Assembly (NCBI GenBank): GCA_963678065.2 | Contig: CAXXVZ010000005.1 | Coordinates: forward strand, 1,120,001-1,184,000 | DNA from: Treponemataceae bacterium | Lineage (GTDB): Bacteria; Spirochaetota; Spirochaetia; Treponematales; Rectinemataceae | Reading direction: 5' to 3' | Length of the DNA stretch: 64,000 nucleotides | Part shown: piece by piece, positions 1 through 38,559 of the stretch | How positions within the stretch are numbered: position 1 is the stretch's first letter | Layout: every line of letters begins with the position of its first letter | Position numbers and translations under genes: made by a program | The notes under the pieces: model-generated | What the model was told of the DNA's origin: nothing | Seen by the model: the letters and a program-made list of their open reading frames with translations, nothing else | Databases searched by the model: none

Positions 1-140
1 GGTTCAGGTCCGCTGTCAGAGATCGCTCACAAGGGTCACTGCTTCCCTTCCGGTTCGTATGATATATCGCCGTGTCCCTGCCCACAAGGGCAGGGAGGTA
101 GAAGTCCCGTCGCTTGTTATCCGAAATTCAGGTACACGTA

Positions 141-403: not shown

Positions 404-465
404 GCCTAACCTTAAAGTTGAGCTGCAACGCGACACGCGTTGTCAGCTCGAACTTGGCGTTAGGC
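404..465 (-). other. attC-like recombination site (62 bp)
   Basis: Minus strand GCCTAAC-GCCAA-GTTCGAGC-TGACAACGCG-TGT-CGCGTTGCA-GCTCAAC-TTTAAG-GTTAGGC: R''/5/L''...L'/6/R' layout with two extrahelical bases. Confidence 0.85.
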
Positions 466-494: not shown

Positions 495-1019
495 TCAATA
501 ATCCTTATAAATCACCTTCAGCATTTTCTTCTCTACATCAAACCAAAGCGAAACATAAGTCTCAGTGACATACGATTTCCCTGTTCCTTTCTCCTTAGCA
601 AAAAATGAGAGACTAAGCGGAAATTCAATGACTTCATGACTAAGGCCAACGATTTCATCATCAGTTGGAACAACGATATCATATAAGACTTGCCCTATAT
701 TCCCAAGAATCTTTTTCCCTGTAACAAGTCCCCAGATAGTACGTCTGCAACTATTTTCTGAATAAACATAATAGTATTCGACAACATTCTCTTCTTTTTT
801 TACATTTGGATTGTACAATTTTGTATCTCTGAATTTGACAGCGATATATGGTTCCCCGAACACCATTGGTATTTGATTAGTATCTTTAGCTCTCAATCCA
901 AAGTTCATTGGGAACTTGGGTAAATTATCAATTTCTTTGGGATTGAATTCCTGTGAATACACCACCCCCAGGGAAATTGAAATAAGTAGGACAATAAATG
1001 CTAAAAGAGTTCTTGCCAT
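495..1019 (-). CDS. Exported immunity protein for the NlpC/P60 tip
   Basis: Overlaps toxin 3' end, AT-rich, N-terminal signal peptide MARTLLAFIVLLISISLGVVYS. Confidence 0.75.
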   Translation of the reverse strand: MARTLLAFIVLLISISLGVVYSQEFNPKEIDNLPKFPMNFGLRAKDTNQIPMVFGEPYIAVKFRDTKLYNPNVKKEENVVEYYYVYSENSCRRTIWGLVTGKKILGNIGQVLYDIVVPTDDEIVGLSHEVIEFPLSLSFFAKEKGTGKSYVTETYVSLWFDVEKKMLKVIYKDY

Positions 1020-1570
1020 ATGATGTATCCTTGACTGGCTGGATTCCTATTACCGCTGAAGGGCGTATAAGTTTTATTGACTACCCCGGACTCAGCATTT
1101 GGCGCGGTCTGTCTCGGATCTTTATTGTGAATTGCTTCCCATGTCGTACCGGGAGCAGAGGCATCCACGATCTGTTTTGTTACTTCATCGCCTATCTGCC
1201 CTACGCCGTAGTTAACATGATCATTTGGCTTTTCATATGAGTAAAAATTCAAAACACCTGCATCACCTTGTCTGTTTGTATTTACATCCTTAAATTTTCC
1301 AACAAAATTCGAGTTTGCCATACCATTTGCAGTTAGGCGGTCAACGTCTGCTCCCATGGCCCTAAGTGAACCTATACCTACACCACTACAATCAGCTTTT
1401 GTTGTTGTGGTTCCCGAGCCATACTCTACGCCAACATATTCTCTAATCTTTTCCGCAAACTGCAAATTTAGGTCTGTGGGGCTTCTTAGTGAATTTGTAT
1501 CCCGATCATAGAATTCATCGCCGTACAGCTGAGCACCTTCAATCTCCCGCAACCCTGTCGGATCTGTGGA
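1001..1570 (-). pseudogene. Orphan Rhs C-terminal tip, NlpC/P60-like (papain-fold) peptidoglycan hydrolase
   Basis: Begins at TDPTGL; YVGVEYGSG...ADCSG (catalytic Cys) and DHV (His); no rhs core upstream. Confidence 0.75.
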
Positions 1571-1793
1571 CTTTACTGGATTCTCGCCCCGCTGTTTTTC
1601 TTCTCCACGAGCCACCTCCCCGGTTTCGGTTTTTTTGGTCTCAGCGAGCGAGGCATAGAGCAGATACAGCCACAGCGCCTCGGTGAAGGTCTGCAGCCAC
1701 CTCCGGAGAAACCCTTCCACTACGAGCAGTTCCACAGTCAGCTTGACGTGCTGCTGTGGCAGGAGAAGGGGCGCGCACCGCATGAAAGAGATT

Positions 1794-2795
1794 CTATCCT
1801 GGCCGACCTTCCGGGACAAGGCGGGCGAGCCTTTTGATATAGTCCCTGTCCACCTCCGCATAGATCGCCTGCTCCCTCGGGTGGTAGCGCCGATAGATCC
1901 GCTTAAGGTTCTCCGTCACGACGTGCGTGTACCGCGCCGTCGTCTCGACTCCTGCGTGACCCAAGAGTTCCTGGATCTGGCGCACGCTCACGCCGCGGCT
2001 TAAAAGATGGGTCGCGGTGGCATGCCGGACCGAGTGGGCCGACAGGGTCGGGTCGTCCATACCGAAGCGCCGCAGGAGGGTTCGGAAACGCTCACTCACA
2101 CTCGCTGGCCTCACATGGCTCCCTGTCCTCGGTCCGCAGGTCCCCGTGAATATCCAGGCCTGCGGATCATGGGCGCGGTTCCCGAGGTACAGAAGCAGCA
2201 CATCCCGCGCGACCTCCGAGATCGGCACGAGCCTGTCCTTGTCACCCTTGCCCCGCACGCGCATGATCCGGCGCTCGAAGTCCACGTCGCCCACCGTAAG
2301 GCCCGCAACTTCGCCCACACGAAGGCCAGCCGCGTACACGAGCTCGAAGAGCGCGCGATCCCGCAATCCCTGCGTCGTCGTCGTATCGAGCTCGTCAAGA
2401 AAGCGCTGCATCTCCGTTTCTGTGAACGCGCGGCGGCGTACAGACTCCGGGGGGAGCGGATCACCCAGTTGCCCGGCGGGGTTGTCGTCGATAAGCCCTG
2501 AGCGGTACAGACAGGCGTACAGAAGCCGTACCATCCCGAAGCGACTATTGACCGTCGTGTGCTTAAGCCGTTCTCCCGTCGTCTTCGACAGTCGCGCCGC
2601 GAGATCCTCGCGGTAGCCAAGGAGCTGCGCCGGCGTGACCTGACGTATATCGCCTATCGCGTGCTCTTCGGTCCAGCGGTAATACCCTATGATCGTAGCA
2701 CGCGCGTGGGCCATGTAGCACGCGCCGATCCGCCTGGCCACGAGGTCCTCGCTCACCAGGTGCAGTCCCAAAGCTTGTACGGCCTCGCCAGTCAC
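1794..2795 (-). CDS. XerD-like tyrosine recombinase, catalytic residues intact
   Basis: AGLRVGE, GKGDKDR, HSVRH, LLGH, TTARYTHV; N-terminal SAM-like domain. Confidence 0.93.
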   Translation of the reverse strand: MTGEAVQALGLHLVSEDLVARRIGACYMAHARATIIGYYRWTEEHAIGDIRQVTPAQLLGYREDLAARLSKTTGERLKHTTVNSRFGMVRLLYACLYRSGLIDDNPAGQLGDPLPPESVRRRAFTETEMQRFLDELDTTTTQGLRDRALFELVYAAGLRVGEVAGLTVGDVDFERRIMRVRGKGDKDRLVPISEVARDVLLLYLGNRAHDPQAWIFTGTCGPRTGSHVRPASVSERFRTLLRRFGMDDPTLSAHSVRHATATHLLSRGVSVRQIQELLGHAGVETTARYTHVVTENLKRIYRRYHPREQAIYAEVDRDYIKRLARLVPEGRPG

Positions 2796-3757
2796 GATCG
2801 GAACTCCCAGCTTCCGCGCGGGTGCGCCGCGTCCACCGCCGCGCGCAGGCTCTCCTTGCTCCGCCGCAGGTAGGTCTGTGTGCTGCCTAAGTTCCGAAAC
2901 CCGACCAAGATTTGCACGTGCCGAAGGTCGCAGCCTGACTCGACCAGGTGCGCCCCCAGGCTCGTCCGAAAGCCGTAGCTTGTGATCATCGGCAATCCCT
3001 CACTCGCACAGGTCTCGGCCAAAACCTCGTTGATCACCTGAGTCAGCCTCCCGTGCCCCGCGCCGAAGAGCGTGTGCGCATACCTCCGCTCGTACTCGTG
3101 AAACACAAGTTTCCGTCGCGGCAGATACTCCTTGAGCACCCCCGCCGCGTAGCTCGTCAGGAAGGCCGTCCGTCCCTGCCCCGAGCGCCCGCTCCGAACC
3201 CACACTGTCCGCTCGCGAAGATCAAGGTCAGCCGGTTCGAGCGCGGCCGCCTCACTCGCGTGCAAGCCCGCAGCGTACATGAGTTCCGCCGCCACGTGCA
3301 CCCGATAGGTCTTTACCACCTTCCACCACGGCCGCACCTCATCGAAGCGCGACAGGGCCGCAAGGAGTCTCGCCATCTCCTCGACCGTCAGCGCATTCTC
3401 CGACAGATGCTCTCCCACCCGCACCCGACGGATCTCGCGGAAGGGATTCGTCCGTATCGTCCCCGTCTTCACGAGGTAGTCGAAGAACCGCCTGGCCGCT
3501 TTCAGATGGTTGTTGATCGTCCCCGCGTTGTACGGCCGCCCTGTCGCTGCTGTCATCGTCGACAGCTTCACCTGGTAGCGCAGAGCCTCAGCAAGCCCTA
3601 CCTCCGCAACCTCGAGTTCCTCCGCTTCCAGCCATGAGCCGACGGTCCGCGCAAGCGTGCGTATCGACTCGTAACCCTGATCAGTTACCTTCGGCTGTTC
3701 TTCAGCGAGAAAGGCTTCGATCTGCGCCGAAAGCCGTACGGAGTATATGCCATCCAC
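2792..3757 (-). CDS. XerC-like tyrosine recombinase with degenerate active site (GTG start at 3757 chosen; ORF opens at 3826)
   Basis: Integrase-fold motifs but AGLHASE, SGRSG, YGFRT, LVGF; Tyr kept in TQTY. Confidence 0.88.
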   Translation of the reverse strand: MDGIYSVRLSAQIEAFLAEEQPKVTDQGYESIRTLARTVGSWLEAEELEVAEVGLAEALRYQVKLSTMTAATGRPYNAGTINNHLKAARRFFDYLVKTGTIRTNPFREIRRVRVGEHLSENALTVEEMARLLAALSRFDEVRPWWKVVKTYRVHVAAELMYAAGLHASEAAALEPADLDLRERTVWVRSGRSGQGRTAFLTSYAAGVLKEYLPRRKLVFHEYERRYAHTLFGAGHGRLTQVINEVLAETCASEGLPMITSYGFRTSLGAHLVESGCDLRHVQILVGFRNLGSTQTYLRRSKESLRAAVDAAHPRGSWEFRS

Positions 3758-3843
3758 GTTCGCCTCTCTTCCCCGCCGGAATTGCGCGACCAGATTGGTA
3801 ATTCCTTGTCGCGCCAGGGGCAACACTCGCTATCGGTAGTCAG

Positions 3844-3869
3844 TGCCCAGTTCTGCCCAGACTGACCAG
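3844..3869. repeat. Three short direct repeats TG(C/A)CCAG at 9-10 bp spacing
   Basis: tgcccag-ttc-tgcccag-ac-tgaccag just after the ATPase stop; also at 12605-12630. Confidence 0.5.
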
Positions 3870-4306
3870 ATTTATGCCGTTGATCCGGAGAGTCGTTCTG
3901 CCATCGCCTCAGGACTCGGAATCATCGACAGATCCACCGCCCCAATCTCCGCGTCCTCGCGAAGCCGGTAATAGGCTCGCGAGCGTTCCGAGCCCCCTCG
4001 CGCAATCGACACGTAGTCGTACTCGACGAGCTGCCGCAGACTCTGCTTGATCCATGTATGCCCCAGCCCGGTCAGCTCCCGTACCTGCCGCTGCGTGAAG
4101 CTCACCTCTTCAGCCCGTAAGTGCTGCGCTCTCGCCTCGCGGCCCACCCACGTACGCAACTCGCCGTACAGTGTGTAGCGTAATCTAGAAATACCCGAAA
4201 AGATCAAACTGGAATGGACAGAAAAATCGTCAGAATTCCCCATAAAAATCGTGGGGAGGAAGTGGCGATGAAAACCCTGTAGGATTTATCCAGCAGGGAG
4301 GAGGGA

Positions 4307-5779
4307 ATGCTCCACATGAACCAGATTGATCACGTCAAAGATTTGCAAAGGCAGGGCTATGGTCCCTGCGAGATCGCTGAACGGCTGGGAATCGATCGAA
4401 AAACAACAGCGAAGTATATGAAGCAGGAGGACTTCAACGCCTCTACCGAAGTGCCCCGCGAGCTTCCCTCGAAACTTGATCGATGGAAGCCAACCATCGA
4501 TCAATGGCTTGCCGAAGACCTGAAGATGCGTTTCAAGCAGCGCCATAGGGCCATGAGGATCCATACAAGGCTTCTGGAAGAACACCCCGACGACTACGAC
4601 TGCTCATATCCTTTGGTCCAGCGCTATGTCAAACGGCGGAAAGCGGCCAGGAAAGAAGCGGAGGGGTTTCTTGAGCTCGTCTGGTCGAAAGGCGAGGCGC
4701 AGGCCGATTTCGGAGAGGCAGAACTGATCGAGGCCGGCGTTCGAAGGACCGTCAAATACCTGACCTTGACCTTTCCCTTCAGCAATGCGGGCTTTACGCA
4801 GTGTTTCAGCGGCGAGACGGCCGAATGTGTTTCCCAGGGGCTCAAAGATATATTCAGCCACATAGGTGGCGTTCCCGCCAGGATCGTGTTCGACAACGCA
4901 ACGGGCGTAGGCAGACGGGTCCGCGACCGTGTCACCTTGAGCCAGCTTTTCCTTCGGTTCAAATGCCACTATGGCTTTGCGGTCAGCTTCTGCAACCCTG
5001 CTTCAGGCCATGAGAAAGGGAATGTCGAAAACAAGATCGGCTATGCGAGAAGGAACTTCTTCGTTCCTCTGCCGGTTGTGGACAGCCTCGAGTCTTGGAA
5101 CAAGGAATTGCTCGAAAAAGCGGCGAAAGATCATGACCGATCGCATTACAAGAAAAATCAGAATATTGCCGAGTTGTTCGAAGAGGAGCGGCAGTCTTTA
5201 GGGCTTTTGCCGGTGCGAAGCTTCATCGTCGAGCGTTTCGAGCGAGTATCCACGGATGGCTACGGAAAGTTCTGCATTGACGGAAAGCATTGGTATTCAA
5301 GCGCTCCCGAATGCGGGAACAGCGAAGTGACCGTAGGGCTCAAGGCGCATGAACTCGTCGTGTACCGCAGCGAAGGAACCCCGTTGTGTGTCCACCGAAG
5401 AGTCTATGGCGACGAGCGGAGCGACAGCTGCGATTACCGAACAAGCCTTGAAACCCTCATGAAGAAGCCTGGCGCATGGATCAATAGCGCCTTTAGGGCA
5501 GGCGTTGACGATACCATACGAGTCGCGATGGACGAACTCTCAAAGCCTGATCTGCGCAATGTGCTGAAAGTCCTGGTGAAAAGCAGTACGACCTTTGGGT
5601 TCGACGTCGCCATGACCTCGCTTGAGGAAGCGATTGCCCGAGGCCGGCTGGACAGTTTCAGCCTTAGCGCGGTTGCTTCCAGGGTCGCCTTTGATGGGCT
5701 TCACGGCATTCCCTCCGAGGGACCCGACCTCGGAGCCTACGATCGCGCCCTCATGAGCAACTCGGAGACCGTGTCATGA
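4307..5779 (+). CDS. istA: IS21 transposase IstA
   Basis: N-terminal HTH; QADFG, VFDNA, EKGNVE DDE motifs. Confidence 0.95.
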   Translation: MLHMNQIDHVKDLQRQGYGPCEIAERLGIDRKTTAKYMKQEDFNASTEVPRELPSKLDRWKPTIDQWLAEDLKMRFKQRHRAMRIHTRLLEEHPDDYDCSYPLVQRYVKRRKAARKEAEGFLELVWSKGEAQADFGEAELIEAGVRRTVKYLTLTFPFSNAGFTQCFSGETAECVSQGLKDIFSHIGGVPARIVFDNATGVGRRVRDRVTLSQLFLRFKCHYGFAVSFCNPASGHEKGNVENKIGYARRNFFVPLPVVDSLESWNKELLEKAAKDHDRSHYKKNQNIAELFEEERQSLGLLPVRSFIVERFERVSTDGYGKFCIDGKHWYSSAPECGNSEVTVGLKAHELVVYRSEGTPLCVHRRVYGDERSDSCDYRTSLETLMKKPGAWINSAFRAGVDDTIRVAMDELSKPDLRNVLKVLVKSSTTFGFDVAMTSLEEAIARGRLDSFSLSAVASRVAFDGLHGIPSEGPDLGAYDRALMSNSETVS

Positions 5780-6555
5780 GAAAAGCGCGTGTCAATCGTG
5801 CCGAACTGCGCAGCGAAATCTCCGTACTGCTGCGCAAGATGGCCTTCAGCCAGACCGCGGTAAAGATCTGCGAGGAAGAGGCCAAGGCACCCCAGGAAGA
5901 GTTTCTCCTGAAGATCCTGAAGCGAGAGATGGCTAACCGCGACGATGTCCGCAGGGCACGATTCCTTCATGAAGCGGCCTTCCCCGTCTACAAAACCTTC
6001 GAGGGCTTTGATTTCTCCTGCGTGAAGCTGCCGCCGGCGCTTTCGAAACAGGAAATGATGACCACCCAGTTCGTCGCCGAGAAGAAAAACTTGGTGCTTT
6101 ACGGCCCCGTTGGAACTGGAAAGACACATCTTGCCACAGCCCTTGGCGTCACCGCGTGCTCTCGCACCTTCCGTACCAGGTTCTTTACCGCTGCAGAGCT
6201 GGTGGTAAGGCTTTCCGAAGCCCTTAAGGAAGGCTCGCTTGAGCGGCTTGTTATGTCCATCGCTCGGGCTGATCTCTTGATCATAGACGAATGGGGCTAT
6301 GTCCCCGTCGACCGGCAAGGAGCCCAGCTCCTGTTCAGGATAATTTCCGATTCCTATGAGCGCCGAAGCGTTATTCTCACGACCAATCTTGAATTCTCCA
6401 AATGGGGGACAATCTTCACGGACGATCAGATGGCTGCCGCCATGATCGACAGGCTTGCCCACCATGGTCACATTATTCTCTTCGAAGGTGAAAGCTACCG
6501 GATGAAACACGCACTCATGCGGCAGAAAGGCCAGGCACAATTACCCACCGGCTGA
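5776..6555 (+). CDS. istB: IS21 helper ATPase IstB
   Basis: GPVGTGKT, LLIIDEWGY, TTNL, AMIDRL. Confidence 0.95.
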   Translation: MRKARVNRAELRSEISVLLRKMAFSQTAVKICEEEAKAPQEEFLLKILKREMANRDDVRRARFLHEAAFPVYKTFEGFDFSCVKLPPALSKQEMMTTQFVAEKKNLVLYGPVGTGKTHLATALGVTACSRTFRTRFFTAAELVVRLSEALKEGSLERLVMSIARADLLIIDEWGYVPVDRQGAQLLFRIISDSYERRSVILTTNLEFSKWGTIFTDDQMAAAMIDRLAHHGHIILFEGESYRMKHALMRQKGQAQLPTG

Positions 6556-8046
6556 TGGGTGTTTTTGTACGATTTTTTCGGGTATTTCGCCTTGACGAAA
6601 CACAGTACAGCCCCACCGCCCCCGCGGGTAGCTCCCGTACCGTCGAGCTCATCACCCCCTCCACCATGATCGTGTACGCTACCCGGTAGTCCTCCAGGTC
6701 GCAGCGGATGAAGCTCACTGCCCCCTCACGCTCCTCACGCTTCTGGTACTGCCTCAGAAAGCACACGCTCGCGATCAGATCCAGAAACCGGTCATGGTCG
6801 CGGCGGCTCCGCATGAGACTCGTCGGAAACCCCAGGTGCACCGCAAAGTCGTTCACGATCGCCACCTTCCGCACCAGCCGCTGCGCCGCCTGGTGCGCCC
6901 GTATGATCCGCTCCGTCTCTCCGCGCCCAGTCCGCAAGCGTTCCAGCGAATACTTCTGCCGCTGCGCCTCGTGGATCCGCGCAGTCTGGATCTTCGACTC
7001 GTCCGCGTTCACCACGAAGCACCGGCTCGCGTTCTCCGGATTCACCGCATGGCTCGTCCCCGACAGCACGCTCGACACCACCACCGGCGTCCTGACCACC
7101 CGGCTCTGCATCGTCCCCGTCTCCGGGTCCTTCATCGTCACCAGCCTCGACAGCTCCTTGCCCGACAGCATCTCCCGGATCTGGTGCTCCACCACCTCCC
7201 CGTGCACCGCTTCTCCCAGAATCAGAAACTTGTGGCTCAGGTCCTCGATGTAGTTCAGTGCCTGGTCCGACAGGCTCGTCACCGCCACCACCTCCTCGGG
7301 CGGCATAAGCTTCCGCACCGTCTCCACGAGATAGCTCTTTCCCGCCGCGGACTGCGACAGAATCAAGACCGAGATCGGATCGTCCAGCTTCCGGCTCGAC
7401 GCGCACAGGTACAGAAGCTGCTTATTCAGGTCCTCTCCCACGTAGCCCAACGCGCTGAGATCCTCCACGATCCGCTCAAACAGGCGCGGGTCGCGCAACA
7501 GCGACAGCCCCAGCTCGCGGTCGGCCGCGCTCATCGGGACGCCCGCCTTCGTATTTCCCCGCCGCAGGGCCTCGTCGCGCTCGCACTCGAGATTCTCAAG
7601 GATCAGCACGAGGTCCTTCTGTGCCCGCGCGAGCTCCCACCCGAAGCTCCGCGCCACCGCCTGCGCAAAGCCGCCCCTCGCCTTCGCCGCGTACAGGTCC
7701 ACCGTGTCGTAGTAGCTCATCATCCCTGCACTCGCCCGGATCGCCACCTTCAGGCTCGTCACAAACAGCTGCCTGACCCCGCCTATGCGGTACGTCATCG
7801 CCCCCACACGGAACACATGGAACAGCCCATCCCGCTCGACGTGCAGCTCCGGTCCATCCGTCTCGTCCATGAAGCCGGCCGCTTCGCCCGGTCTCGCCTC
7901 CTCCTCTGCTGCCCCTGCCGGGGGCGACTCCGGGGGAACTGCGTCACCTTCGGTGACGACCTTCCCCGCGGAGTTGGGGGGAAGAAACGCGGCCCCAGGA
8001 AGGGACTCATCAGCGACCGCGAGTACCCGCTCGCTCTGGTCTCCCC

Positions 8047-8331
8047 TCATACCGCACCACGCCGCCCGGAGCGCCGCTCCCGGTCAAAGCTCTTCTTCGC
8101 CTCGTGCACATAGCTGTTCACCTGCCCATACGCCGAGCGAAAGGCGTGCAGGTTCACCACCGCCCGCTTCCCCCAAAACTCACCCTGCGCCCGCCCAAGC
8201 CCCTCTCCCCGGAAGCTCATTCGACAGGCCAGCGATTCCGACACCGGAATGCAGCTCACCTCCTCCAGCGTACACCCTGCCATGATCAGATACGCCGCTT
8301 CGTACAGATCCGTTACCTCCGCAGTTTCCAT
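8047..8331 (-). CDS. Small protein (94 aa, DUF5659-like), possible directionality/DNA-binding factor
   Basis: AAGGAGG RBS before METAEVTDLYEAAYL; stop overlaps ATPase start; present in both units. Confidence 0.7.
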   Translation of the reverse strand: METAEVTDLYEAAYLIMAGCTLEEVSCIPVSESLACRMSFRGEGLGRAQGEFWGKRAVVNLHAFRSAYGQVNSYVHEAKKSFDRERRSGRRGAV

Positions 8332-8479
8332 CCCCCGCCTCCTTTTTGCGGGCAATCTCGTCATCTCCCTGTCCTGTATGCTATCCTGTCTTCGCGTCAT
8401 GACGAGGTTCCCTCGTTGTGTCCTCGCCCGTTTCCCCGAAGCATCCACCACGACCTCAGGGGAAACGGGCTCCTTTGTA

Positions 8480-8569
8480 CCTGACATAAAACCATGTCAA
8501 GTACTATTATTGGTTTTGAGTATTATACATCATGTATTATATCGTCAAGCGGTAGGGTATACTTTTTCT
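8480..8569. promoter_or_regulatory. Divergent promoter/operator region
   Basis: AT-rich; palindromes TGACAT-N6-ATGTCA and ATACAT-C-ATGTAT; TATACT 6 nt before XRE ATG; TTGACG...TATAAT on minus strand. Confidence 0.55.
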
Positions 8570-8977
8570 ATGCCACAGCGACCGAAATATATTCTGCCGG
8601 ATATCTCCGAATCCTCTCACAATGTCGGTCAAAATATTGCCGCACTGCGCAAAAAAAAAGGACTCAGCCAAAAAGAACTGGCTCTGAAAATCGGCATCAC
8701 CCAGGCCTTGCTTTCACACTATGAAACCGCCCGTCTGAGTATTCCCGTCGAGGTTGTCATTCAGATTTCCATTTCGTTGAACGTACACGCGGATGTGATA
8801 TTGGGAATCGGAGCATCGGCACCGCTCGACGATGACTCGCCAAGCCGCAGAATTGTGCAGCGGGCGAAACTGATCGAGCGTCTTCCCGCCTTCGACCAGA
8901 AAGCCCTGCTCAAAACCATCGACAATGCGTTGAAAGGCGCCGGCATCACAACGGAAGATCCAAAAGTCTCTCACTGA
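8570..8977 (+). CDS. XRE-family HTH transcriptional regulator
   Basis: IAALRKKKGLSQKELALKIGITQALLSHYE. Confidence 0.92.
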   Translation: MPQRPKYILPDISESSHNVGQNIAALRKKKGLSQKELALKIGITQALLSHYETARLSIPVEVVIQISISLNVHADVILGIGASAPLDDDSPSRRIVQRAKLIERLPAFDQKALLKTIDNALKGAGITTEDPKVSH

Positions 8978-9007
8978 CTGATGCTTCTGCTCCCTGCCCT
9001 CGACGAC

Positions 9008-9381
9008 GGCACCATCAAACACAGTCTCCCGACTGCGCCTAATTCTCGGTTGGCGGGTCGCGCCGCCTCACGCTGCGCGTGGAGTGGCGCTCCCCCAAAT
9101 CCGCTTTCGCGGACTTCGCCAACCTACGCATTAGCCACAATCGGGTCTGCCACTCCTTTCGGCTCGATACACGAAATTCACAAGTATGGAGTCACGCATT
9201 CGGATATTTGTCTTCCCATAGCCAAGGGGCTGCGCGTCGAAGACGCGATGCCACGCGGCAGTTCTTCAGCTTGCCATTCACGCCTTGAAACAGGCTCGCA
9301 GCCGAACTCGGATCTTTTCTTGCCTCGGATACACAAAGGCCGCCTCAGCATACACTGAAGCGGCCTTTGTCTTTTTTTCTT
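9008..9381. repeat. Conserved structured non-coding region, copy B (includes 100-bp GCCTAAT...ATTAGCC hairpin 9037-9136 and terminator 9333-9378)
   Basis: Four related copies in the window with stem-preserving substitutions. Confidence 0.85.
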
Positions 9382-9444
9382 GCCTAACCTTCCGCTTAAA
9401 CGGCGAGGGCTTTTGGCCCGAGTCCGGTTGAAGCCGCGTTAGGC
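9382..9444 (-). other. attC-like site (63 bp, slightly degenerate)
   Basis: Minus strand GCCTAAC-GCGG-CTTCAACC...GTTTAAG-CGGAAG-GTTAGGC; immunity stop codon TAA lies inside R''. Confidence 0.75.
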
Positions 9445-9708
9445 TTTGGGGTCAGGCCCCAAGGGGGCTTCTTTACGAAAAATGCTCAAATCCGACTTCA
9501 TTTGCCTAAGGAGAAAACTGCATGCCTCAGCCTCTGAGGAGAATTGCTTAATGTCTTTTTTTTGCCCTCGTTCAAAGAAGTATATCTCCCAACATCCACC
9601 TTCCTCGATTAGGCATGTTCGATCTTCGCGAAATAGCTTGTTGAATGAATACCACGAACTCGGTACATTCAGTTGGTTCAATTCTCGTTCGAGCTCTTTT
9701 ATATTCAT
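9439..9708 (-). CDS. Immunity protein for the TNT tip
   Basis: ATGA overlap with toxin stop; 89 aa; WEIYFFERG...FSSEAEAC. Confidence 0.75.
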   Translation of the reverse strand: MNIKELERELNQLNVPSSWYSFNKLFREDRTCLIEEGGCWEIYFFERGQKKDIKQFSSEAEACSFLLRQMKSDLSIFRKEAPLGPDPKA

Positions 9709-10331
9709 TTCAACACCTCGACCAATTTAGCATCGATAAGGCTTCCCAAAGTGCTACGGAACATGTATTGAATACCACCACCGGCACTTCCATAATATGG
9801 CCCGGCAATACCAGCTTTTACTTCTAGATCGATCTTCGATCTATATGCAGTGTATTCACCAGAGTTCCATGGGGGTAATGCTCTTTCTTCTTTTGGAGTC
9901 CCTATCGGAGAAGCATATGAACCACGTGGATTCCCATATCTATCAAACGTCGAACCTGCGGGTAGGGTTGTTTCCCATGAAGCGCCAAACAGAAAGCCAT
10001 CAAACAAAGGATAGCAGACGTCTTCGACCAATGCTGGCGGTGGCGGCAATATCCCGGCTGTATTTAGCCCACCATATAGCCCAGTTACAACTGCAACAGC
10101 GGCGGTGGCAATATTATTAGTTGCACTAGTTACTACGTTTTTAGCAAGCTTCGCAGCCGATTCAAGCGAATTTATTATATTGCTAACAACATTTTCAGCA
10201 TCCGGCGGATCGCTCGAAGGAACAATATTCCCGGTACCAAGTCCTGATATTAGGCTGCTATCGGACGTCTCGCCCGTTGATTCGAACCGTTTCAGATCCC
10301 CCATCCCTGCCAACCCCGTGGGATCCGTGAA
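9705..10331 (-). pseudogene. Orphan Rhs tip, TNT (DUF4237) NAD+ glycohydrolase domain
   Basis: Begins FTDPTGL; LPAGSTFDRYG...YASP.GTP.EERALPP...GGGIQY. Confidence 0.88.
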
Positions 10332-10554
10332 CTTTACTGGATTCTCGCCCCGCTGTTTTTCTTCTCCACGAGCCACCTCCCCGGTTTCGGTTTTTTTGGT
10401 CTCAGCGAGCGAGGCATAGAGCAGATACAGCCACAGCGCCTCGGTGAAGGTCTGCAGCCACCTCCGGAGAAACCCTTCCACTACGAGCAGTTCCACAGTC
10501 AGCTTGACGTGCTGCTGTGGCAGGAGAAGGGGCGCGCACCGCATGAAAGAGATT

Positions 10555-11556
10555 CTATCCTGGCCGACCTTCCGGGACAAGGCGGGCGAGCCTTTTGATA
10601 TAGTCCCTGTCCACCTCCGCATAGATCGCCTGCTCCCTCGGGTGGTAGCGCCGATAGATCCGCTTAAGGTTCTCCGTCACGACGTGCGTGTACCGCGCCG
10701 TCGTCTCGACTCCTGCGTGACCCAAGAGTTCCTGGATCTGGCGCACGCTCACGCCGCGGCTTAAAAGATGGGTCGCGGTGGCATGCCGGACCGAGTGGGC
10801 CGACAGGGTCGGGTCGTCCATACCGAAGCGCCGCAGGAGGGTTCGGAAACGCTCACTCACACTCGCTGGCCTCACATGGCTCCCTGTCCTCGGTCCGCAG
10901 GTCCCCGTGAATATCCAGGCCTGCGGATCATGGGCGCGGTTCCCGAGGTACAGAAGCAGCACATCCCGCGCGACCTCCGAGATCGGCACGAGCCTGTCCT
11001 TGTCACCCTTGCCCCGCACGCGCATGATCCGGCGCTCGAAGTCCACGTCGCCCACCGTAAGGCCCGCAACTTCGCCCACACGAAGGCCAGCCGCGTACAC
11101 GAGCTCGAAGAGCGCGCGATCCCGCAATCCCTGCGTCGTCGTCGTATCGAGCTCGTCAAGAAAGCGCTGCATCTCCGTTTCTGTGAACGCGCGGCGGCGT
11201 ACAGACTCCGGGGGGAGCGGATCACCCAGTTGCCCGGCGGGGTTGTCGTCGATAAGCCCTGAGCGGTACAGACAGGCGTACAGAAGCCGTACCATCCCGA
11301 AGCGACTATTGACCGTCGTGTGCTTAAGCCGTTCTCCCGTCGTCTTCGACAGTCGCGCCGCGAGATCCTCGCGGTAGCCAAGGAGCTGCGCCGGCGTGAC
11401 CTGACGTATATCGCCTATCGCGTGCTCTTCGGTCCAGCGGTAATACCCTATGATCGTAGCACGCGCGTGGGCCATGTAGCACGCGCCGATCCGCCTGGCC
11501 ACGAGGTCCTCGCTCACCAGGTGCAGTCCCAAAGCTTGTACGGCCTCGCCAGTCAC
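10555..11556 (-). CDS. XerD-like tyrosine recombinase, intact
   Basis: Same protein sequence as 1794-2795. Confidence 0.93.
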   Translation of the reverse strand: MTGEAVQALGLHLVSEDLVARRIGACYMAHARATIIGYYRWTEEHAIGDIRQVTPAQLLGYREDLAARLSKTTGERLKHTTVNSRFGMVRLLYACLYRSGLIDDNPAGQLGDPLPPESVRRRAFTETEMQRFLDELDTTTTQGLRDRALFELVYAAGLRVGEVAGLTVGDVDFERRIMRVRGKGDKDRLVPISEVARDVLLLYLGNRAHDPQAWIFTGTCGPRTGSHVRPASVSERFRTLLRRFGMDDPTLSAHSVRHATATHLLSRGVSVRQIQELLGHAGVETTARYTHVVTENLKRIYRRYHPREQAIYAEVDRDYIKRLARLVPEGRPG

Positions 11557-12518
11557 GATCGGAACTCCCAGCTTCCGCGCGGGTGCGCCGCGTCCACCGC
11601 CGCGCGCAGGCTCTCCTTGCTCCGCCGCAGGTAGGTCTGTGTGCTGCCTAAGTTCCGAAACCCGACCAAGATTTGCACGTGCCGAAGGTCGCAGCCTGAC
11701 TCGACCAGGTGCGCCCCCAGGCTCGTCCGAAAGCCGTAGCTCGTGATCATCGGCAATCCCTCACTCGCACAGGTCTCGGCCAAAACCTCGTTGATCACCT
11801 GAGTCAGCCTCCCGTGCCCCGCGCCGAAGAGCGTGTGCGCGTACCCCCGCTCGTAGCCCCTGAACACAACCTCACGCCGGCAGAGATACTCCTTGAGCAC
11901 CCCCGCCGCGTAGCTCGTCAGGAATGCCGTCCGCCCCTGCCCCGAGCGCCCGCTCCGAACCCACACCGTCCGCTCGCGAAGATCAAGGTCAGCCGGTTCG
12001 AGCGCAGCCGCCTCACTCGCGTGCAAGCCCGCAGCGTACATGAGTTCCGCCGCCACGTGCACCCGATAGGTCTTTACCACCTTCCACCACGGCCGCACCT
12101 CATCGAAGCGCGACAGGGCCGCAAGGAGTCTCGCCATCTCCTCGACCGTCAGCGCATTCTCCGACAGATGCTCTCCCACCCGCACCCGACGGATCTCGCG
12201 GAAGGGATTCGTCCGTATCGTCCCCGTCTTCACGAGGTAGTCGAAGAACCGCCTGGCCGCTTTCAGATGGTTGTTGATCGTCCCCGCGTTGTACGGCCGC
12301 CCTGTCGCTGCTGTCATCGTCGACAGCTTCACCTGGTAGCGCAGAGCCTCAGCAAGCCCTACCTCCGCAACCTCGAGTTCCTCCGCTTCCAGCCATGAGC
12401 CGACGGTCCGCGCAAGCGTGCGTATCGACTCGTAACCCTGATCAGTTACCTTCGGCTGTTCTTCAGCGAGAAAGGCTTCGATCTGCGCCGAAAGCCGTAC
12501 GGAGTATATGCCATCCAC
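11553..12518 (-). CDS. XerC-like recombinase with degenerate active site (ORF opens at 12587)
   Basis: Same substitutions as 2792-3757. Confidence 0.88.
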   Translation of the reverse strand: MDGIYSVRLSAQIEAFLAEEQPKVTDQGYESIRTLARTVGSWLEAEELEVAEVGLAEALRYQVKLSTMTAATGRPYNAGTINNHLKAARRFFDYLVKTGTIRTNPFREIRRVRVGEHLSENALTVEEMARLLAALSRFDEVRPWWKVVKTYRVHVAAELMYAAGLHASEAAALEPADLDLRERTVWVRSGRSGQGRTAFLTSYAAGVLKEYLCRREVVFRGYERGYAHTLFGAGHGRLTQVINEVLAETCASEGLPMITSYGFRTSLGAHLVESGCDLRHVQILVGFRNLGSTQTYLRRSKESLRAAVDAAHPRGSWEFRS

Positions 12519-12632
12519 GTTCGCCTCTCTTCCCCGCCGGAATTGCGCGACCAGATTGGTAATTCCTTGTCGCGCCAGGGGCAACACTCGCTATCGGTAG
12601 TCAGTGCCCAGTTCTGCCCAGACTGACCAGAT

Positions 12633-14372
12633 TTATGCCGTTGATCCGGAGAGTCGTTCTGCCATCGCCTCAGGACTCGGAATCATCGACAGATCCACCG
12701 CCCCAATCTCCGCGTCCTCGCGAAGCCGGTAATAGGCTCGCGAGCGTTCCGAGCCCCCTCGCGCAATCGACACGTAGTCGTACTCGACGAGCTGCCGCAG
12801 ACTCTGCTTGATCCATGTATGCCCCAGCCCGGTCAGCTCCCGTACCTGCCGCTGCGTGAAGCTCACCTCTTCAGCCCGTAAGTGCTGCGCTCTCGCCTCA
12901 CGGCCCACCCAGGTCCGAAGCTCGCCATACAGCCCCACCGCCCCCGCGGGTAGCTCCCGCACCGTGCTCGCAAGCACCCCCTCCACCATGATCGTGTACG
13001 CGATCCGGTAGTCCTCCAGGTCGCAGCGGATGAAGCTCACTGCCCCCTCACGCTCCTCGTGCTTCTGGTACTGCCTCAGAAAGCACACGCTCGCGATCAG
13101 GTCCAGAAACCGGTCGTGGTCCCGCCGGCTCCGCATGAGACTCGTCGGAAACCCCAGGTGCACCGCAAAGTCGTTCACGATCGCCACCTTCCGCACCAGC
13201 CGCTGCGCCGCCTGGTGCGCCCGTATGATCCGCTCCGTCTCTCCGCGGCCTGCCCGCAAGCGTTCCAGCGAATACTTCTGCCGCTGCGCCTCGTGGATCC
13301 GCGCAGTCTGACCTCTCGACTCGTCCGCGTTCACCACAAAGCACCGACTCGCGTTCTCCGGATTCACCGCGTGGCTCGTTCCCGACAGCACGCTCGACAC
13401 CACCACCGGCGTCCTGACCACCCGGCTCTGCATCGTCCCCGTCTCCGGGTCCTTCATCGTCACCAGCCTCGACAGCTCCTTGCCCGACAGCATCTCCCGG
13501 ATCTGGTGCTCCACCACCTCCCCGTGCACCGCTTCTCCCAGAATCAGAAACTTGTGGCTCAGGTCCTCGATGTAGTTCAGTGCCTGGTCCGACAGGCTCG
13601 TCACCGCCACCACCTCCTCGGGCGGCATAAGCTTCCGCACCGTCTCCACGAGATAGCTCTTTCCCGCCGCGGACTGCGACAGAATCAAGACCGAGATCGG
13701 ATCGTCCAGCTTCCGGCTCGACGCGCACAGGTACAGAAGCTGCTTATTCAGGTCCTCTCCCACGTAGCCCAACGCGCTGAGATCCTCCACGATCCGCTCA
13801 AACAGGCGCGGGTCGCGCAACAGCGACAGCCCCAGCTCGCGGTCGGCCGCGCTCATCGGGACGCCCGCCTTCGTATTTCCCCGCCGCAGGGCCTCGTCGC
13901 GCTCGCACTCGAGATTCTCAAGGATCAGCACGAGGTCCTTCTGTGCCCGCGCGAGCTCCCACCCGAAGCTCCGCGCCACCGCCTGCGCAAAGCCGCCCCT
14001 CGCCTTCGCCGCGTACAGGTCCACCGTGTCGTAGTAGCTCATCATCCCTGCACTCGCCCGGATCGCCACCTTCAGGCTCGTCACAAACAGCTGCCTGACC
14101 CCGCCTATGCGGTACGTCATCGCCCCCACACGGAACACATGGAACAGCCCATCCCGCTCGACGTGCAGCTCCGGTCCATCCGTCTCGTCCATGAAGCCGG
14201 CCGCTTCGCCCGGTCTCGGCTCCTCCTCTTTTGCCCCTGCCGGGGGCGACTCCGGGGGAACGTCGTCACCTTCGGTGACTGCGTTCCCCGCGGAGTGGGG
14301 GGGAAGAAACGCGGCCCCAGGAAGGGACTCATCAGCGACCGCGAGTACCCGCTCGCTCTGGTCTCCCCTCAT
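12633..14372 (-). CDS. AAA+/helicase-like ATPase with C-terminal winged HTH
   Basis: Walker A variant SQSAAGKS, LILGE, ENASR; resembles the C-terminal part of primase-annotated proteins found beside paired Xer genes; start uncertain. Confidence 0.78.
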   Translation of the reverse strand: MRGDQSERVLAVADESLPGAAFLPPHSAGNAVTEGDDVPPESPPAGAKEEEPRPGEAAGFMDETDGPELHVERDGLFHVFRVGAMTYRIGGVRQLFVTSLKVAIRASAGMMSYYDTVDLYAAKARGGFAQAVARSFGWELARAQKDLVLILENLECERDEALRRGNTKAGVPMSAADRELGLSLLRDPRLFERIVEDLSALGYVGEDLNKQLLYLCASSRKLDDPISVLILSQSAAGKSYLVETVRKLMPPEEVVAVTSLSDQALNYIEDLSHKFLILGEAVHGEVVEHQIREMLSGKELSRLVTMKDPETGTMQSRVVRTPVVVSSVLSGTSHAVNPENASRCFVVNADESRGQTARIHEAQRQKYSLERLRAGRGETERIIRAHQAAQRLVRKVAIVNDFAVHLGFPTSLMRSRRDHDRFLDLIASVCFLRQYQKHEEREGAVSFIRCDLEDYRIAYTIMVEGVLASTVRELPAGAVGLYGELRTWVGREARAQHLRAEEVSFTQRQVRELTGLGHTWIKQSLRQLVEYDYVSIARGGSERSRAYYRLREDAEIGAVDLSMIPSPEAMAERLSGSTA

Positions 14373-14653
14373 ACCGCACCACGCCGCCCGGAGCGCCGCT
14401 CCCGGTCAAAGCTCTTCTTCGCCTCATGCACATAGCTGTTCACCTGCCCATACGCCGAGCGAAACGCACTCAGGTTCACCACCGCCCGCTTCCCCCAAAA
14501 CTCACCCTGCGCCCGTCCAAGCCCCTCTCCCCGGAAGCTCATTCGACAGGCCAGCGATTCCGACACCGGAATGCACCGCACCTCCTCCAGCGTACACCCT
14601 GCCATGATCAGATACGCCGCTTCGTACAGATCCGTTACCTCCGCAGTTTCCAT
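14369..14653 (-). CDS. Small protein (DUF5659-like)
   Basis: Paralog of 8047-8331. Confidence 0.7.
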   Translation of the reverse strand: METAEVTDLYEAAYLIMAGCTLEEVRCIPVSESLACRMSFRGEGLGRAQGEFWGKRAVVNLSAFRSAYGQVNSYVHEAKKSFDRERRSGRRGAV

Positions 14654-14891
14654 CCCCCGCCTCCTTTTTGCGGGGAATCTCGTCATCGTCCTGTCCTGTA
14701 TGCTATCCTGTCTTTGCGTCATGACGAGGTTCCCTCGTTGTGTCCTCGCCCGTTTCCCCGAAGCATCCACCACGACCTCAGGGGAAACGGGCTCCTTTGT
14801 ACCTGACATACAACCATGTCAAGTACTATTATTGGTTTTGAGTATTATACATCATGTATTATATCGTCAAGCGGTAGGATATACTTTTTCT

Positions 14892-15299
14892 ATGCCACAG
14901 CGACCGAAATATATTCTGCCGGATATCTCCGAATCCTCTCACAATGTCGGTCAAAATATTGCCGCACTGCGCAAAAAAAAAGGACTCAGCCAAAAAGAAC
15001 TGGCTCTGAAAATCGGCATCACCCAGGCCTTGCTTTCACACTATGAAACCGCCCGTCTGAGTATTCCCGTCGAGGTTGTCATTCAGATTTCCATTTCGTT
15101 GAACGTACACGCGGATGTGATATTGGGAATCGGAGCATCGGCACCGCTCGACGATGACTCGCCAAGCCGCAGAATTGTACAGCGGGCGAAACTGATCGAA
15201 CGTCTTCCCGCCTTCGACCAGAAAGCCCTGCTCAAAACCATCGACAATGCGTTGAAAGGCGCCGGCATCACAACGGAAGATCCAAAAGTCTCTCACTGA
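14892..15299 (+). CDS. XRE-family HTH regulator
   Basis: Same protein sequence as 8570-8977. Confidence 0.92.
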   Translation: MPQRPKYILPDISESSHNVGQNIAALRKKKGLSQKELALKIGITQALLSHYETARLSIPVEVVIQISISLNVHADVILGIGASAPLDDDSPSRRIVQRAKLIERLPAFDQKALLKTIDNALKGAGITTEDPKVSH

Positions 15300-15329
15300 C
15301 TGATGCTTCTGCTCCCTGCCCTCGACGAT

Positions 15330-15590
15330 GGCACCATCAAACACAGTCGCCCGACTGCGCCTAATTCTCGGTTGGCGGGGAGCGCCGTCCCAAGCCGTGC
15401 TTGGGAGAGCGCTCCCCCAAATCCGCTTTCGCGGACTTCGCCAACCTACGCATTAGACGCTATCGGGTCTGCCTTCCCCTTCGGCTCAATACTCGAAATT
15501 CACAAGTATGGAGTCAAGCATGCGGATGGTTGTCTTCCCATAGCCAAGGGGCTGCGCGACTACTGTCGCGATGCCCCGCGGCAGCTCTTC
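15330..15590. repeat. Conserved structured non-coding region, copy C (100-bp hairpin 15359-15458; no terminator or attC)
   Basis: Aligns to 9008-9267. Confidence 0.85.
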
Positions 15591-15662
15591 TCACCCCAGA
15601 TTCCCACGATTCCATAGCCACCGTGACGAAGGTACGGCATGCAGGAGCATATAAATAAAAAC

Positions 15663-16262
15663 TCAACCAGTCAGTGTTTTTTCAAAATTTACACCAGTTA
15701 TTTTTTTCTTCTGAATAGCCTTTTTTAGTTTTTCACTTACATAAAGGCCAGACGTAATCTTCCAAAGACTGTGATGTGCAGGCTTATGGAAAACACTGAA
15801 TTTTTCAACCTTATCTATAGAAAAGCACGGTTTCATAATCCGATCGGTACCTCGGACATACATTGTTTTTTGCACATCGATAACATCAAGCATTTTTGAG
15901 AATCGTAAAATAAAGTATATGCGCTGTTCTCCCCCACCATTTATTTTTGCTCTTATCCAATTAATTCCTTCATTACCAGATAAGTTTTCTTCAATGACAA
16001 CCTTTAGCCTCTCAGAAAATAAGGGCCAAGCCAAACTATTCGGTAAATAGTCGATCCATAGTTCTTTGATTTCTGAAAGGTCAGAGGACCTAATAAGCCC
16101 ATCTCCCTCTTTCGTCAATTTCACCAATGAAAACTCAAATGGCATTTCAGAAACACCATCGATCTCTGAAATCAACTCATGTGCCAACCGAGTTCCTTCT
16201 GGTGCAAACGCACTTGCTACTGGCGTGGAATCTGCACCACCAAATAGATAGTAATTCATCAT
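15663..16262 (-). CDS. Immunity protein (Imm11/DUF1629-like) for the AHH tip
   Basis: ATGA overlap with rhs1 stop; LFSERLK..IE, LDVID, LYVSEKLKKAI...ITGVNF. Confidence 0.78.
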   Translation of the reverse strand: MMNYYLFGGADSTPVASAFAPEGTRLAHELISEIDGVSEMPFEFSLVKLTKEGDGLIRSSDLSEIKELWIDYLPNSLAWPLFSERLKVVIEENLSGNEGINWIRAKINGGGEQRIYFILRFSKMLDVIDVQKTMYVRGTDRIMKPCFSIDKVEKFSVFHKPAHHSLWKITSGLYVSEKLKKAIQKKKITGVNFEKTLTG

Positions 16263-19200
16263 TGCCACCAAGCTTTTCTTAACATCCCAGGGTTTTCTAT
16301 AACTGGAGTCTTTACATATTGGTTGAACAATTCAAGGAACTTTGCCTGACTAGTTCCGGCGCCAACCGCTGCATCTTGCATACCCTGTTGAACAAAATCA
16401 TGATAGGCATCTGGATGTCGGCCTAAATGAGGCATCAACTCTTTGTTCCATGCTTCATCCAGCTTCAGTCCAAATTTCTCTGCAATATCTTCCATTTGTT
16501 GGGTAAACTTAGAGTTTTTATTAGTTGCAAAGTGATGAAGTTGTTCTTCGTAAATTAAGCAATAATCATTCAATAAATTGGCAACATTATTTCCATATAG
16601 CAGTCTCAGTACAGAATCGCTAGCATTGTTCATCCCCTGCAGGAGAGAACCGACTGCTTTTGCTACATCTTCAATAACCTCCCTTCTTCCTTCTGCTCTT
16701 TCTGCTTTCTCAAATTCCTTGACCCTATTTTCAGAATCCCCACTCGAAGCACTCAATTTGCCATTATTATCAGATAAAATGTGCCCGCCATGGTGATCAT
16801 CATCTACTTCATGAGCTAGTCCCGAGGGATCTGTGAACGAGAGCGGATTGTTGCCACAGTAGACGAACCAGTTGCCCCCATCCCTGACCGGGTCCTCAGA
16901 GTAGAACCTCCCCGCCACACAATCATAGTACCGCGCATTGAAGTAGTACAGTCCCGTCGCGTCTCGCTCCTTCCCCGTGTACGACACATCCTGACTCCCG
17001 TCGTACCCGTTGTAGTTCGTCACCGTCGAGCCACCCCACACCGCATAGTCGATCTTCGCCTTCACCGTCCCCGCCGTGTCCGTGACTGCCCTCCGCGATC
17101 CCAGGTTGTCCTGCCACACGTACTCTAGCCGCTCCGTGTTCCCCACGTAGTCCTTCACGTACCGTCCGACTTCCATACCCCCAAGCCGCACGTTCACCTG
17201 CGCCGTCTTCCACGTGCTCCCCTCCATCCTCTCCTTCAGCAGTATCTCGTTCCCCTCGTACACGTACAGCGTCGTCGTCACCGCTCCCGTCGTCGACGTC
17301 TCATCTTTCCGATACCGCAGCCCGTCCGGGTAGTACCGATAGCTGTCCGTCTGCGTTCCACCTGCGTTCCTCGCCAGGTCTCCCATACCCTCCAGCCGCC
17401 CGTACACGTCCCACGTAAGGCTCGCGTACCGGTTCTGCACACCCGTCACCCACCCCCGACTCGCGTCGTCCGTCACGGCTTGCGAACTCGGATGCGTGAT
17501 GTTCCGTAGGAGCATGCTGTTCACTCCCGACACCGGCGCATAGCCATAGCTCGCCGGATCTGTCCCCGTCGACTGTGTCAGGTTCCCGATCGCGTCGTAG
17601 CCGTAGCTTGTTCCCCCTCCCGTCGACAGGCGGTTCATCCCGTCGTACCCGTAGCTCACCCCGTCCCGCCCCGTCACGTTCCCCATCCGATCGTACGTGT
17701 AGCTCCCGTCGCACAGGCTCCCCGGATTGTCCACCGAACTCATTCGCAGCCACGTGTCGTACCCGTACACCGCCGTTCCCCCCGACGTCCCGTACGATAC
17801 CGCCGTCCGTCCTCCCCAGAACGACAGTCCTGTCCGCCCTAGCAGGTTCGACGAACTGTCCGACACCGACAGCGTGTTCGTGTTCCCGCCATACCCTGTT
17901 CCGCCGAAGTACGGTGTCGCATAGTTCACGGCCTTCGCGTACCCACCAAACCCCGTCACCGTCACACTCGCCGGATTGTTCGCCAGGTCGTAGGTCCTCA
18001 CTACCGTCGCCGTCTTCGACCCCGCCTGAGTCGGGACGGTCCGACTCTCTTTGGCCGGTATCCCGTTCACCCCGTATTCCCACGCCACCGTCTGGCTCGG
18101 CGTCGATTCACCCCCTCGCTGCTCAGCCACCGTGGCCGGACCATACTGGCAGTACGCGCTTGTCACTACGAGCGTCGCGGGCTGCGGGCTCCTCGTCGAC
18201 GCTGTCGTCCTCGTCCGCTCCATCCCCGCCTTATTGTACGTGTAACTCACTGTGTCGCCGTTCAGCTCCGTCGCGACACGCACCCGTCCGTCCGGGTAGT
18301 ACGTGTTCGACTTACTCCCCCGCCCCATAGGGTAGCTTTCCGTCTGCAGCCGTCCCGCACGCGTGTACACGTACGTGTACGCTTCCCCGTTCGGCATCGT
18401 CTTCGACGTCACCTGTCCCGTAAAATTATAAGCGTACGACGTCGTCCGGCTGTTCCCTCCCCCGTTCGTCCCGTCCCACTGGATCTCCGAGCTTGTCCGT
18501 CCCAGCCAGTCTTTCTGCGTCCTCGTCCTCGTGTACGTCGACCCATCCCGGTACCTGTCCACCGTCACCGTGTTCTGGCTGTCGTCGTAGGCCGTCGCCA
18601 CCATCGTCACCTGTGAGCCGGAGCTCGGCCCCGACTGCACCTGCACAGGCCGCCCCAGCACATCGTAGCTGTAGCTCGTCACAAGTTGCGTCGAAAGACC
18701 TGCGTCCAGATACACCGTCTCGCTCTTCACGAGCGATGGCATCGCCATATCCCACGTCTTCACCACCTTCCCGATCGCCACCTCTCCTGACCCCGTGTAT
18801 GTCGCGTCCCTGCTCGCCGTATCCGGCTTGTACGGTATCTCCTGCAGAAGCCGTCCGTAGAAATCGTACCGCGATTCGGTGCGGAATCCTTTCCCGTCCG
18901 TCGCCGTCGACCACAGTCCATTCGTGTCCTGCCCATACTCGTACCGCCCGAGTGTCGTCTCTGTCCCGCTCACCACCCGTGACTTCTTCGTCACTCGTCC
19001 CAGTCCATCACACTCGAGCTTACTCGTCGCTGCGGGATACTTCGTCCCGTCGATTGCGGTCCCCTGTGAATCCGTGACGACCGTCCCTTCCTGCAGCCGT
19101 CGTCCCGCAAGGTCATAATCATACGTGGTGACGACACGATCATTCGTTCCGATGTTCGCCCCCAGCTCCTTCGTCTGTGTCGTCACGAACGAGCTCTTCC

Positions 19201-22594: not shown

Positions 22595-22598
22595 GTAA

Positions 22599-26830: not shown

Positions 26831-26853
26831 GAACAGACTCTCCTTACCGTAGC

Positions 26854-38001: not shown

Positions 38002-38002
38002 T

Positions 38003-38530: not shown

Positions 38531-38559
38531 TAATCGAAGAACGTTAGCCGCCTTAGCCT

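Follow-up and report, generated by a model that had tools for sequence, protein, structure and literature searches.

How Rhs and CdiA proteins acquire C-terminal toxin tips unrelated to their previous ones is an old open question. It is raised by a 64,000-nt stretch of a Treponemataceae genome (contig CAXXVZ010000005.1, positions 1,120,001 to 1,184,000; hereafter the window), in which the rhs gene rhs1 is followed on the minus strand by a tandem array: the immunity gene Imm11, a five-gene backbone, a TNT tip with an 89-amino-acid (aa) open reading frame (ORF), a second backbone, and a third tip with a 174-aa ORF (Table 1). A first-pass annotation of these letters had proposed that each unit of tip, immunity gene and backbone is a mobile circle that swaps the tip of rhs1. 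We conclude, with a probability of about 0.8, that each unit integrates site-specifically, as a mobile element that uses the DNA at the Rhs core/tip boundary for its attachment.

Table 1. Coordinates of the tandem array and its surroundings in the window.
Feature	Position	Strand	Basis or remark
Gene-less mini-element	1..403	-	left-end piece plus family-type right end; runs on to orphan tip 4 outside the window
attC-like hairpin after tip-3 immunity gene	404..465	-	attC scan
Putative immunity gene of tip 3, 174 aa	495..1019	-	position only
Orphan tip 3, NlpC/P60-like	1001..1582	-	homologue profile matches
Backbone 2	1571..9267	-	XRE 8570-8977 (+), small ORF 8047-8487, split ATPase, recombinases 2792-3826 and 1794-2795
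IS21 (istA/istB) within backbone-2 ATPase	4172..6604	+	family match
attC-like hairpin after tip-2 immunity gene	9382..9444	-	looser scan only
Putative immunity gene of tip 2, 89 aa	9439..9708	-	stop codon inside attC-like site
Orphan tip 2, TNT family (PF14021)	9705..10343	-	family match
Backbone 1 right end	10332..10554	-	last codons E-N-P-V-K; in-frame leader ORF inside
Tyrosine recombinase B	10555..11556	-	six catalytic residues all intact
Tyrosine recombinase A	11553..12587	-	catalytically degenerate in this lineage (H-R-Y-R-F-Y)
MCM-like AAA+ ATPase	12633..14372	-	fold and sequence searches
Small conserved ORF	14369..14809	-	no family match
XRE/Cro repressor, divergent	14892..15299	+	family match
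Backbone 1 left end, conserved, non-coding	15300..15590	.	sequence comparison
Imm11 immunity gene of AHH tip	15663..16271	-	family match
rhs1, YD/Rhs core with AHH nuclease tip	16259..21805	-	Rhs_assc_core and AHH matches; core/tip junction ~16838/16837
Type II secretion gene cluster between rhs1 and rhs2	21893..32207	-	candidate export route
rhs2	32383..38001	+	core 90.7% identical, other tip joined at same codon
Imm26, attC-like hairpin (38471-38530) and backbone left-end remnant without backbone genes	37991..38899	+	

The tips of the array are joined in one register. The N codons of the motif NP-x4-DPxG lie at 16849 in rhs1 and at 10343 and 1582 before the two orphan tips, which bears out the order and the common codon (AHH, then TNT, then NlpC/P60) reported by the first-pass annotation; the first two positions set unit 1 at 6,506 bp, the size it had given. 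A six-frame scan of the genome for the motif found a further rhs-related occurrence only at rhs2, and two matches without rhs-like context. All four array junctions are in direct orientation. The orphan tips were rightly said to lack core homology upstream: upstream of NP they match the core at 17 of 60 nt, which is chance level, compared with 60 of 60 nt between rhs1 and rhs2, and in register a core and an orphan junction have runs of up to 12 nt in common. Before each orphan, the right end of the backbone holds an in-frame ORF of 69 or 93 codons. This leader (10332-10622) contains a hydrophobic stretch; a similar-looking one, with EAL-x-x-Y-x-LY, occurs after position 8463 in the related locus L044.

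The two backbones are near-identical, as had been noted (98.9% over 2,623 nt and 96.8% over 2,667 nt). The gene set described for them (XRE, small ORF, ATPase, two tyrosine recombinases) is present, with the qualification that recombinase A has lost four catalytic residues and that an IS21 splits the ATPase gene of backbone 2; an identical IS21 lies elsewhere on the contig (C5). This insertion sequence brings unit 2 to 8,761 bp, and a target duplication of 6 bp follows from the spacing (8,761 - 6,322 = 2,433 + 6). G+C is low in the cargo (0.39-0.47 versus 0.62). At rhs1, the tip and immunity gene (0.39 versus 0.59-0.62) stand directly upstream of the left end, a sequence that recurs 3' of the rhs2 immunity gene and, as partial copies, 3' of the tip-3 and tip-4 immunity genes.

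A census of related loci showed that this junction is fixed across many lineages. It covered 85 loci (79 metagenome loci, from the best 80 of 285 matches, five further loci and L019), with a complete recombinase B in 41 and at least 200 nt after it in 35. In 23 of these 35 ends NP-x4-DPxG was found within 260 nt after recombinase B, at +127 to +168 nt, compared with 2.3% of random windows; backbones outside the window thus do end in DPxG codons, as the annotation's model demands. The 23 loci hold 21 distinct tips and 20 distinct right ends, and an all-against-all comparison of the 21 tips and the three window tips gave just three pairs, weakly related. The DNA of the site is itself conserved: counted over 21 distinct junctions and two of this window, the synonymous codons on the tip side are fixed, glycine being GGG in 19 of 23 (background 0.19) and leucine TTG in 18 of 20 (background 0.20). 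Cargo is exchanged on near-identical backbones: loci L063-L066, from the lineage to which six of the loci belong, lie 0-1 nt apart across 900 nt of recombinase B, yet they carry four different tips; near-identical backbones do occur with different tips, as had been anticipated. In L040, core, tip and backbone are arranged as at rhs1. Unit-length contigs with exact terminal overlaps (7,995-9,777 bp) were found at four of the 85 loci, and two more are nearly so.

Empty and filled alleles were found in a distant relative of the element, composed of SymE, XRE, a primase-helicase and one XerC and present in 54 of 5,426 Escherichia coli genomes at 80% coverage or more. Five strains were inspected at the ansP-pptA rhs locus. 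In JNE151685 and A34 the tip is fused to the core (empty alleles); in SCU-113, HD12481 and S10 the same tip and immunity gene stand behind a backbone end, and the core bears a different in-frame tip (filled alleles), reached in SCU-113 after 15 shared bases. The alleles are identical from the first D-P-I-G codon on, with 12 consecutive mismatches directly upstream, and their flanks are 99.2-99.9% identical over 2-13 kb. Two deposited circles built of such units, both ambiguous as evidence of an excised form, measure 8,758 bp in Shigella and 11,289 bp in Lonsdalea. On an Enterobacter plasmid (L110, 17068-41355) three tandem backbones with DinJ/RelE follow cdiA, and the orphans start at VVENN with a non-CdiA leader ahead. 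In E. coli EC554 and 23CRST046 some 50 kb separate a backbone match from the last tip, which suggests that the arrays are long or that a large insertion is present.

We propose the following mechanism. A unit would consist of tip, immunity gene, left end, XRE, small ORF, MCM-like helicase, two tyrosine recombinases and right end, with a hybrid site at either boundary; once the element is a free circle, its right end would abut its own tip. Integration into an rhs gene would proceed by a crossover in the last six bases or so ahead of the DPxG Asp codon, placed there because the backbones share bases up to 10331 and 1570 and the cores up to 16838. The incoming tip would be fused in frame to the core, and the old tip would be left behind the right end as an orphan together with its immunity gene, which would be kept. 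Repeated integration would build an array with the newest tip first, decay would yield gene-less mini-elements, and excision would reverse integration and re-arm the rhs gene. Catalysis would fall to the element's recombinases and control to XRE, and the helicase might serve replication or Holliday-junction processing. As the bases between the arms differ in core and element, the reaction would have to proceed with little homology, and its completion may be aided by the helicase.

Several observations weigh against this conclusion. The motif is absent within 260 nt from 12 of the 35 ends. It lies further out in L097 and L081; L092 has DPDG at +220 with a different prefix; L033 has the same end type as L034, followed by a look-alike site and non-toxin DNA; L044 joins in frame at a look-alike motif, YHHTDHEGS, about 100 codons upstream, with similar DNA. 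The hits on look-alike sites in L033 and L044 speak for the proposed site specificity. In L099 and L103, joined at LYYYGARY, and in L091, L086 and L026, which retain longer core pieces, the joint is at another place in the core, so that fragments of the core remain; no tip was seen in L088 and L105. For the Asp codon the bias falls short of significance (p=0.09), and p-values are overstated, since six loci share one lineage and are not independent. The unit-length circular contigs can have arisen as loops in assembly or by homologous recombination. Neither a circle joint nor a core-to-orphan joint is listed in four sequencing runs, in contigs from which rare forms are dropped, and the AHH unit is without excess depth; a single 9442-16923 joint (side 21 nt, one run) was taken as chance. 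With recombinase A degenerate and backbone 2 broken, this copy may be frozen. The E. coli comparison gives no direction of change, and the two empty strains were chosen by RHS annotation over the tip. The annotation's interpretation is supported by the DPxG ends, the cargo exchange, the E. coli alleles and the unit-length circular contigs; its predicted joints are missing from the contigs of these runs.

Three other explanations were weighed. The backbone might be a cargo-less insertion element that hits DPxG codons and knocks the tip off, with tips arriving by homologous recombination and arrays and circles arising by recombination between backbones. Backbone copies 97-99% identical are good RecA substrates, and core fragments persist in some relatives. 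The deposited 8,758-bp "plasmid" is the same as the middle unit of a tandem array and can itself be an assembly loop or a homologous-recombination product. However, rhs1 is intact and its low-G+C tip and immunity gene abut the left end, with L040 likewise; the orphans of the window have no more than 12 nt in common with a core in register; and in the filled E. coli alleles the core bears another in-frame tip. We regard this explanation as unlikely. It is also quite improbable that the main role of the unit is its own maintenance, the leader ORF letting orphan tips act inside the cell as toxin-antitoxin modules with the warhead swap as a by-product. The in-frame leaders of the window and the open frames of 47-74 codons upstream of the motif in four of the 23 relatives would suit such a role, as would the orphan rhs tips of Salmonella, described as internal toxin-antitoxin modules, with internal expression of orphans demonstrated (Stårsta 2020, PMC7043789, in the part bearing on orphans). 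However, an in-frame stop stands at most 18 codons upstream of the motif in 19 of the 23, and maintenance leaves the fixation of the site at the core/tip boundary unexplained.

The last of the three, that the tandem array is an assembly artefact, is very improbable and already largely refuted. The repeats are long and near-identical, and the genome is in five contigs with a contamination estimate of 6.7%. Against this, the backbone copies are distinguished by the insertion sequence and, in three genes, by 22, 12 and 10 nt. Contig depth was 61 for the backbone and 31.6 and 32.3 for the tips in run X1, which may be the source of the assembly, and 48.9 versus 22.6 and 23.8 in run X3; this roughly twofold depth indicates two backbone copies and speaks against a misassembled repeat, a possibility the annotation had itself raised. 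Tandem arrays also recur in L038, L042, L048 and L097 and in complete E. coli genomes. L016 (G280:C58, 614-17400) has two copies, 99.99% identical, of an 8.4-kb unit that encodes ParA, a toxin-antitoxin pair and a helicase fused to a primase, its tips joined at AAGKG; that duplication may be an assembly artefact.

The backbone proteins were compared with known families. At the six catalytic positions of tyrosine recombinases, which we take to be R-K-H-R-H-Y, recombinase A reads H-R-Y-R-F-Y, and its closest relative (73% identical) R-R-Y-R-F-Y. The substitutions common to the two suggest that A has been kept as a partner without catalytic function and has not decayed recently. Cutting in this lineage is probably done by recombinase B, with A as its non-catalytic partner. 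A pair with one dead and one live member is ruled out for the family as a whole, in which intact recombinases number 35 of 37 for A and 36 of 38 for the other, in keeping with the proposed mechanism. The model of the 579-aa ATPase (predicted local distance difference test, pLDDT, 68.5) resembles MCM helicases (E about 1e-8; the top fold-search matches were all MCM), and the protein corresponds to the C-terminal half of CHC2/Toprim primase proteins in Enterobacter, Ralstonia, Leptospira and others (tblastn, 28-37%). It is without a primase domain, and no primase or SymE match was found among the ORFs scanned; genome G280 has a primase-fused frame of 937 aa. Among 8,000 candidates scored, 804 relatives of the ATPase passed E<=1e-20, and it was found in eight of 301 genomes of the order. 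No relative was found in viral contigs.

Hairpins resembling attC sites, called on what we take to be attC anatomy, lie directly 3' of the immunity genes of tip 2, tip 3 and rhs2. The stricter scan, which missed the tip-2 site, found such sites in six of 31 zones upstream of XRE (45 kb), compared with one in 477 kb elsewhere. The genome encodes an IntI (450 bits, cut-off 265), which lies with one distant attC-like site on contig C3 (about 97000-98140 and 116550-116673). Cargo may be loaded through integron chemistry. An integron origin of the tip junction itself is ruled out because the junction bases differ from the attC inverse core.

Tip 3 has no direct Pfam match, and its NlpC/P60 assignment, made in the first-pass annotation, holds through homologues: of 34 scanned from 66 found, 14 pass the NLPC_P60 cut-off and 24 match at E<=0.05, with Cys and His invariant. 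Its predicted structure is poor (pLDDT 30), its profile matched no solved structure, and the atlas leads were all <0.9. Outside the window, some 74 nt ahead of its base 1, is the start of a fourth tip, Amidase_6 (D codon C5:1119926), which has its own ORF downstream and must be added to the re-arming order of TNT then NlpC/P60 previously put forward. Its spacer is gene-less; the final 130 nt resemble the right ends of related loci (score 44 versus shuffles <=8), in favour of the proposed mechanism, with a score of only 4 against the backbone end of its own genome, and we read it as a decayed earlier unit.

The surroundings of the array have features of their own. A 42-nt repeat of a tRNA-Met 3' end (window 40444-40517; C5:1117930-1117971, ~2 kb before the window) brackets ~42 kb that include both rhs genes, the type II secretion system (T2SS) cluster, an IS110 transposase and a ParE toxin. 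This segment is a probable genomic island; no integrase of its own was seen within the 42 kb, and an Rfam scan matched only the tRNA. The T2SS cluster lies between the two inverted rhs genes, which are signal-peptide-like (for the N-terminus of rhs1, as judged by eye), and L021 has a similar cluster on the upstream side of its backbone; to our knowledge, export of an Rhs protein by a T2SS would be unusual. rhs1 (16838-21805) and rhs2 (32383-37365) form inverted repeats, 91% identical, with cores ending in at least 279 identical bases, and recombination between them would invert the T2SS cluster and swap their tips.

Beyond this locus, we think it reasonably likely that such units form a widespread class of elements carrying polymorphic-toxin warheads, from spirochaetes to E. 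coli, in which the recombinase of each lineage reads conserved motif DNA before the tip and installs a new tip by integration, the cargo perhaps being loaded in a second tier via integron-type attC sites. The motifs would be DPxG here, D-P-I-G in enterobacterial rhs genes, LYYYGARY in L099 and L103, AAGKG in G280 and, apparently, VENN in CdiA. The class would be the episomal tip pool predicted in 2009. The common, unexplained block of XRE, primase-helicase and "XerC" genes next to rhs and cdiA would then be understood as a carrier of interbacterial weapons, and the class would supply recombinases that make in-frame protein fusions. Now that enzymes can be named, the site is narrowed to a few bases and E. 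coli offers naturally empty and filled alleles, the question of tip acquisition becomes directly testable.

The array resembles Rhs C-terminal displacement (Jackson 2009, PMC2935791; Poole 2011, PMC3150448), for which displaced tip and immunity arrays downstream of an intact rhs gene, as here, and a circular intermediate have been described or proposed. The relevant part of Jackson 2009 predicts an episomal tip pool, names no integrase and asks how the circle is made. Unlike the orphan rhs-CT/rhsI modules of that model, which keep core fragments of variable length, the orphans here are without core, their junction is fixed and each unit has its own recombinases. In the main text of Poole 2011, some cdi orphans lack upstream homology, modules span VENN to VENN and the word "recombinase" is absent. 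A primase-MCM/cHTH/SymE block is drawn beside RHS and haemagglutinin genes, without a recombinase, by Kawano 2007 (PMC1891008), whose main text contains neither "xer" nor "recombinase". To judge from that text, the backbone belongs to the same family, with the ATPase match given above, a divergent Cro/cI-type XRE and adjacent rhs or cdiA; unlike those neighbourhoods, this lineage is without a primase domain and annotated SymE and has two recombinases. The portion of Zhang 2012 (PMC3482391) on polyimmunity loci places XerC/D beside them, suspected, as here, of piling up toxin-system cassettes; unlike those arrays, which collect immunity genes, the array here has toxin tips fused in frame to a delivery protein. 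We found no account of recombinase-driven tip exchange in the open-access literature, subscription papers and supplements being outside the scope of the search; the parts and the outcome are already known, the mechanism apparently not. A tyrosine recombinase is likewise suspected of stacking cassettes in the rAID arrays of Bacteroidales, which are arrays of immunity genes. No relaxase, conjugation or packaging genes occur among the five backbone genes, which at the gene level separates the unit from integrative and conjugative or mobilizable elements and phage satellites; with integrative elements it shares an intact catalytic set in recombinase B and a fixed attachment core, empty and filled alleles being seen only in the distant E. 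coli relative. Integrons put the newest cassette in the expressed position, and the array resembles them in this, in the attC-like sites after three immunity genes and in the IntI encoded elsewhere in the genome; unlike integrons, its junctions are not attC/attI, its recombinases reach only 48 and 88 bits against the IntI cut-off (TIGR02249, 265 bits), and each cassette has its own recombinases and helicase. In shufflons (Rci/pilV) a tyrosine recombinase changes a protein C-terminus by inverting resident segments, and some integrative elements supply a replacement 3' end that restores the same target gene sequence. The units described here would resemble the former in a C-terminus changed by a tyrosine recombinase and the latter in a 3' end supplied by the element; unlike them, the array has only direct junctions, so the inverted sites of a shufflon are absent, and its anatomy is that of direct-repeat integration of foreign, unrelated C-termini.

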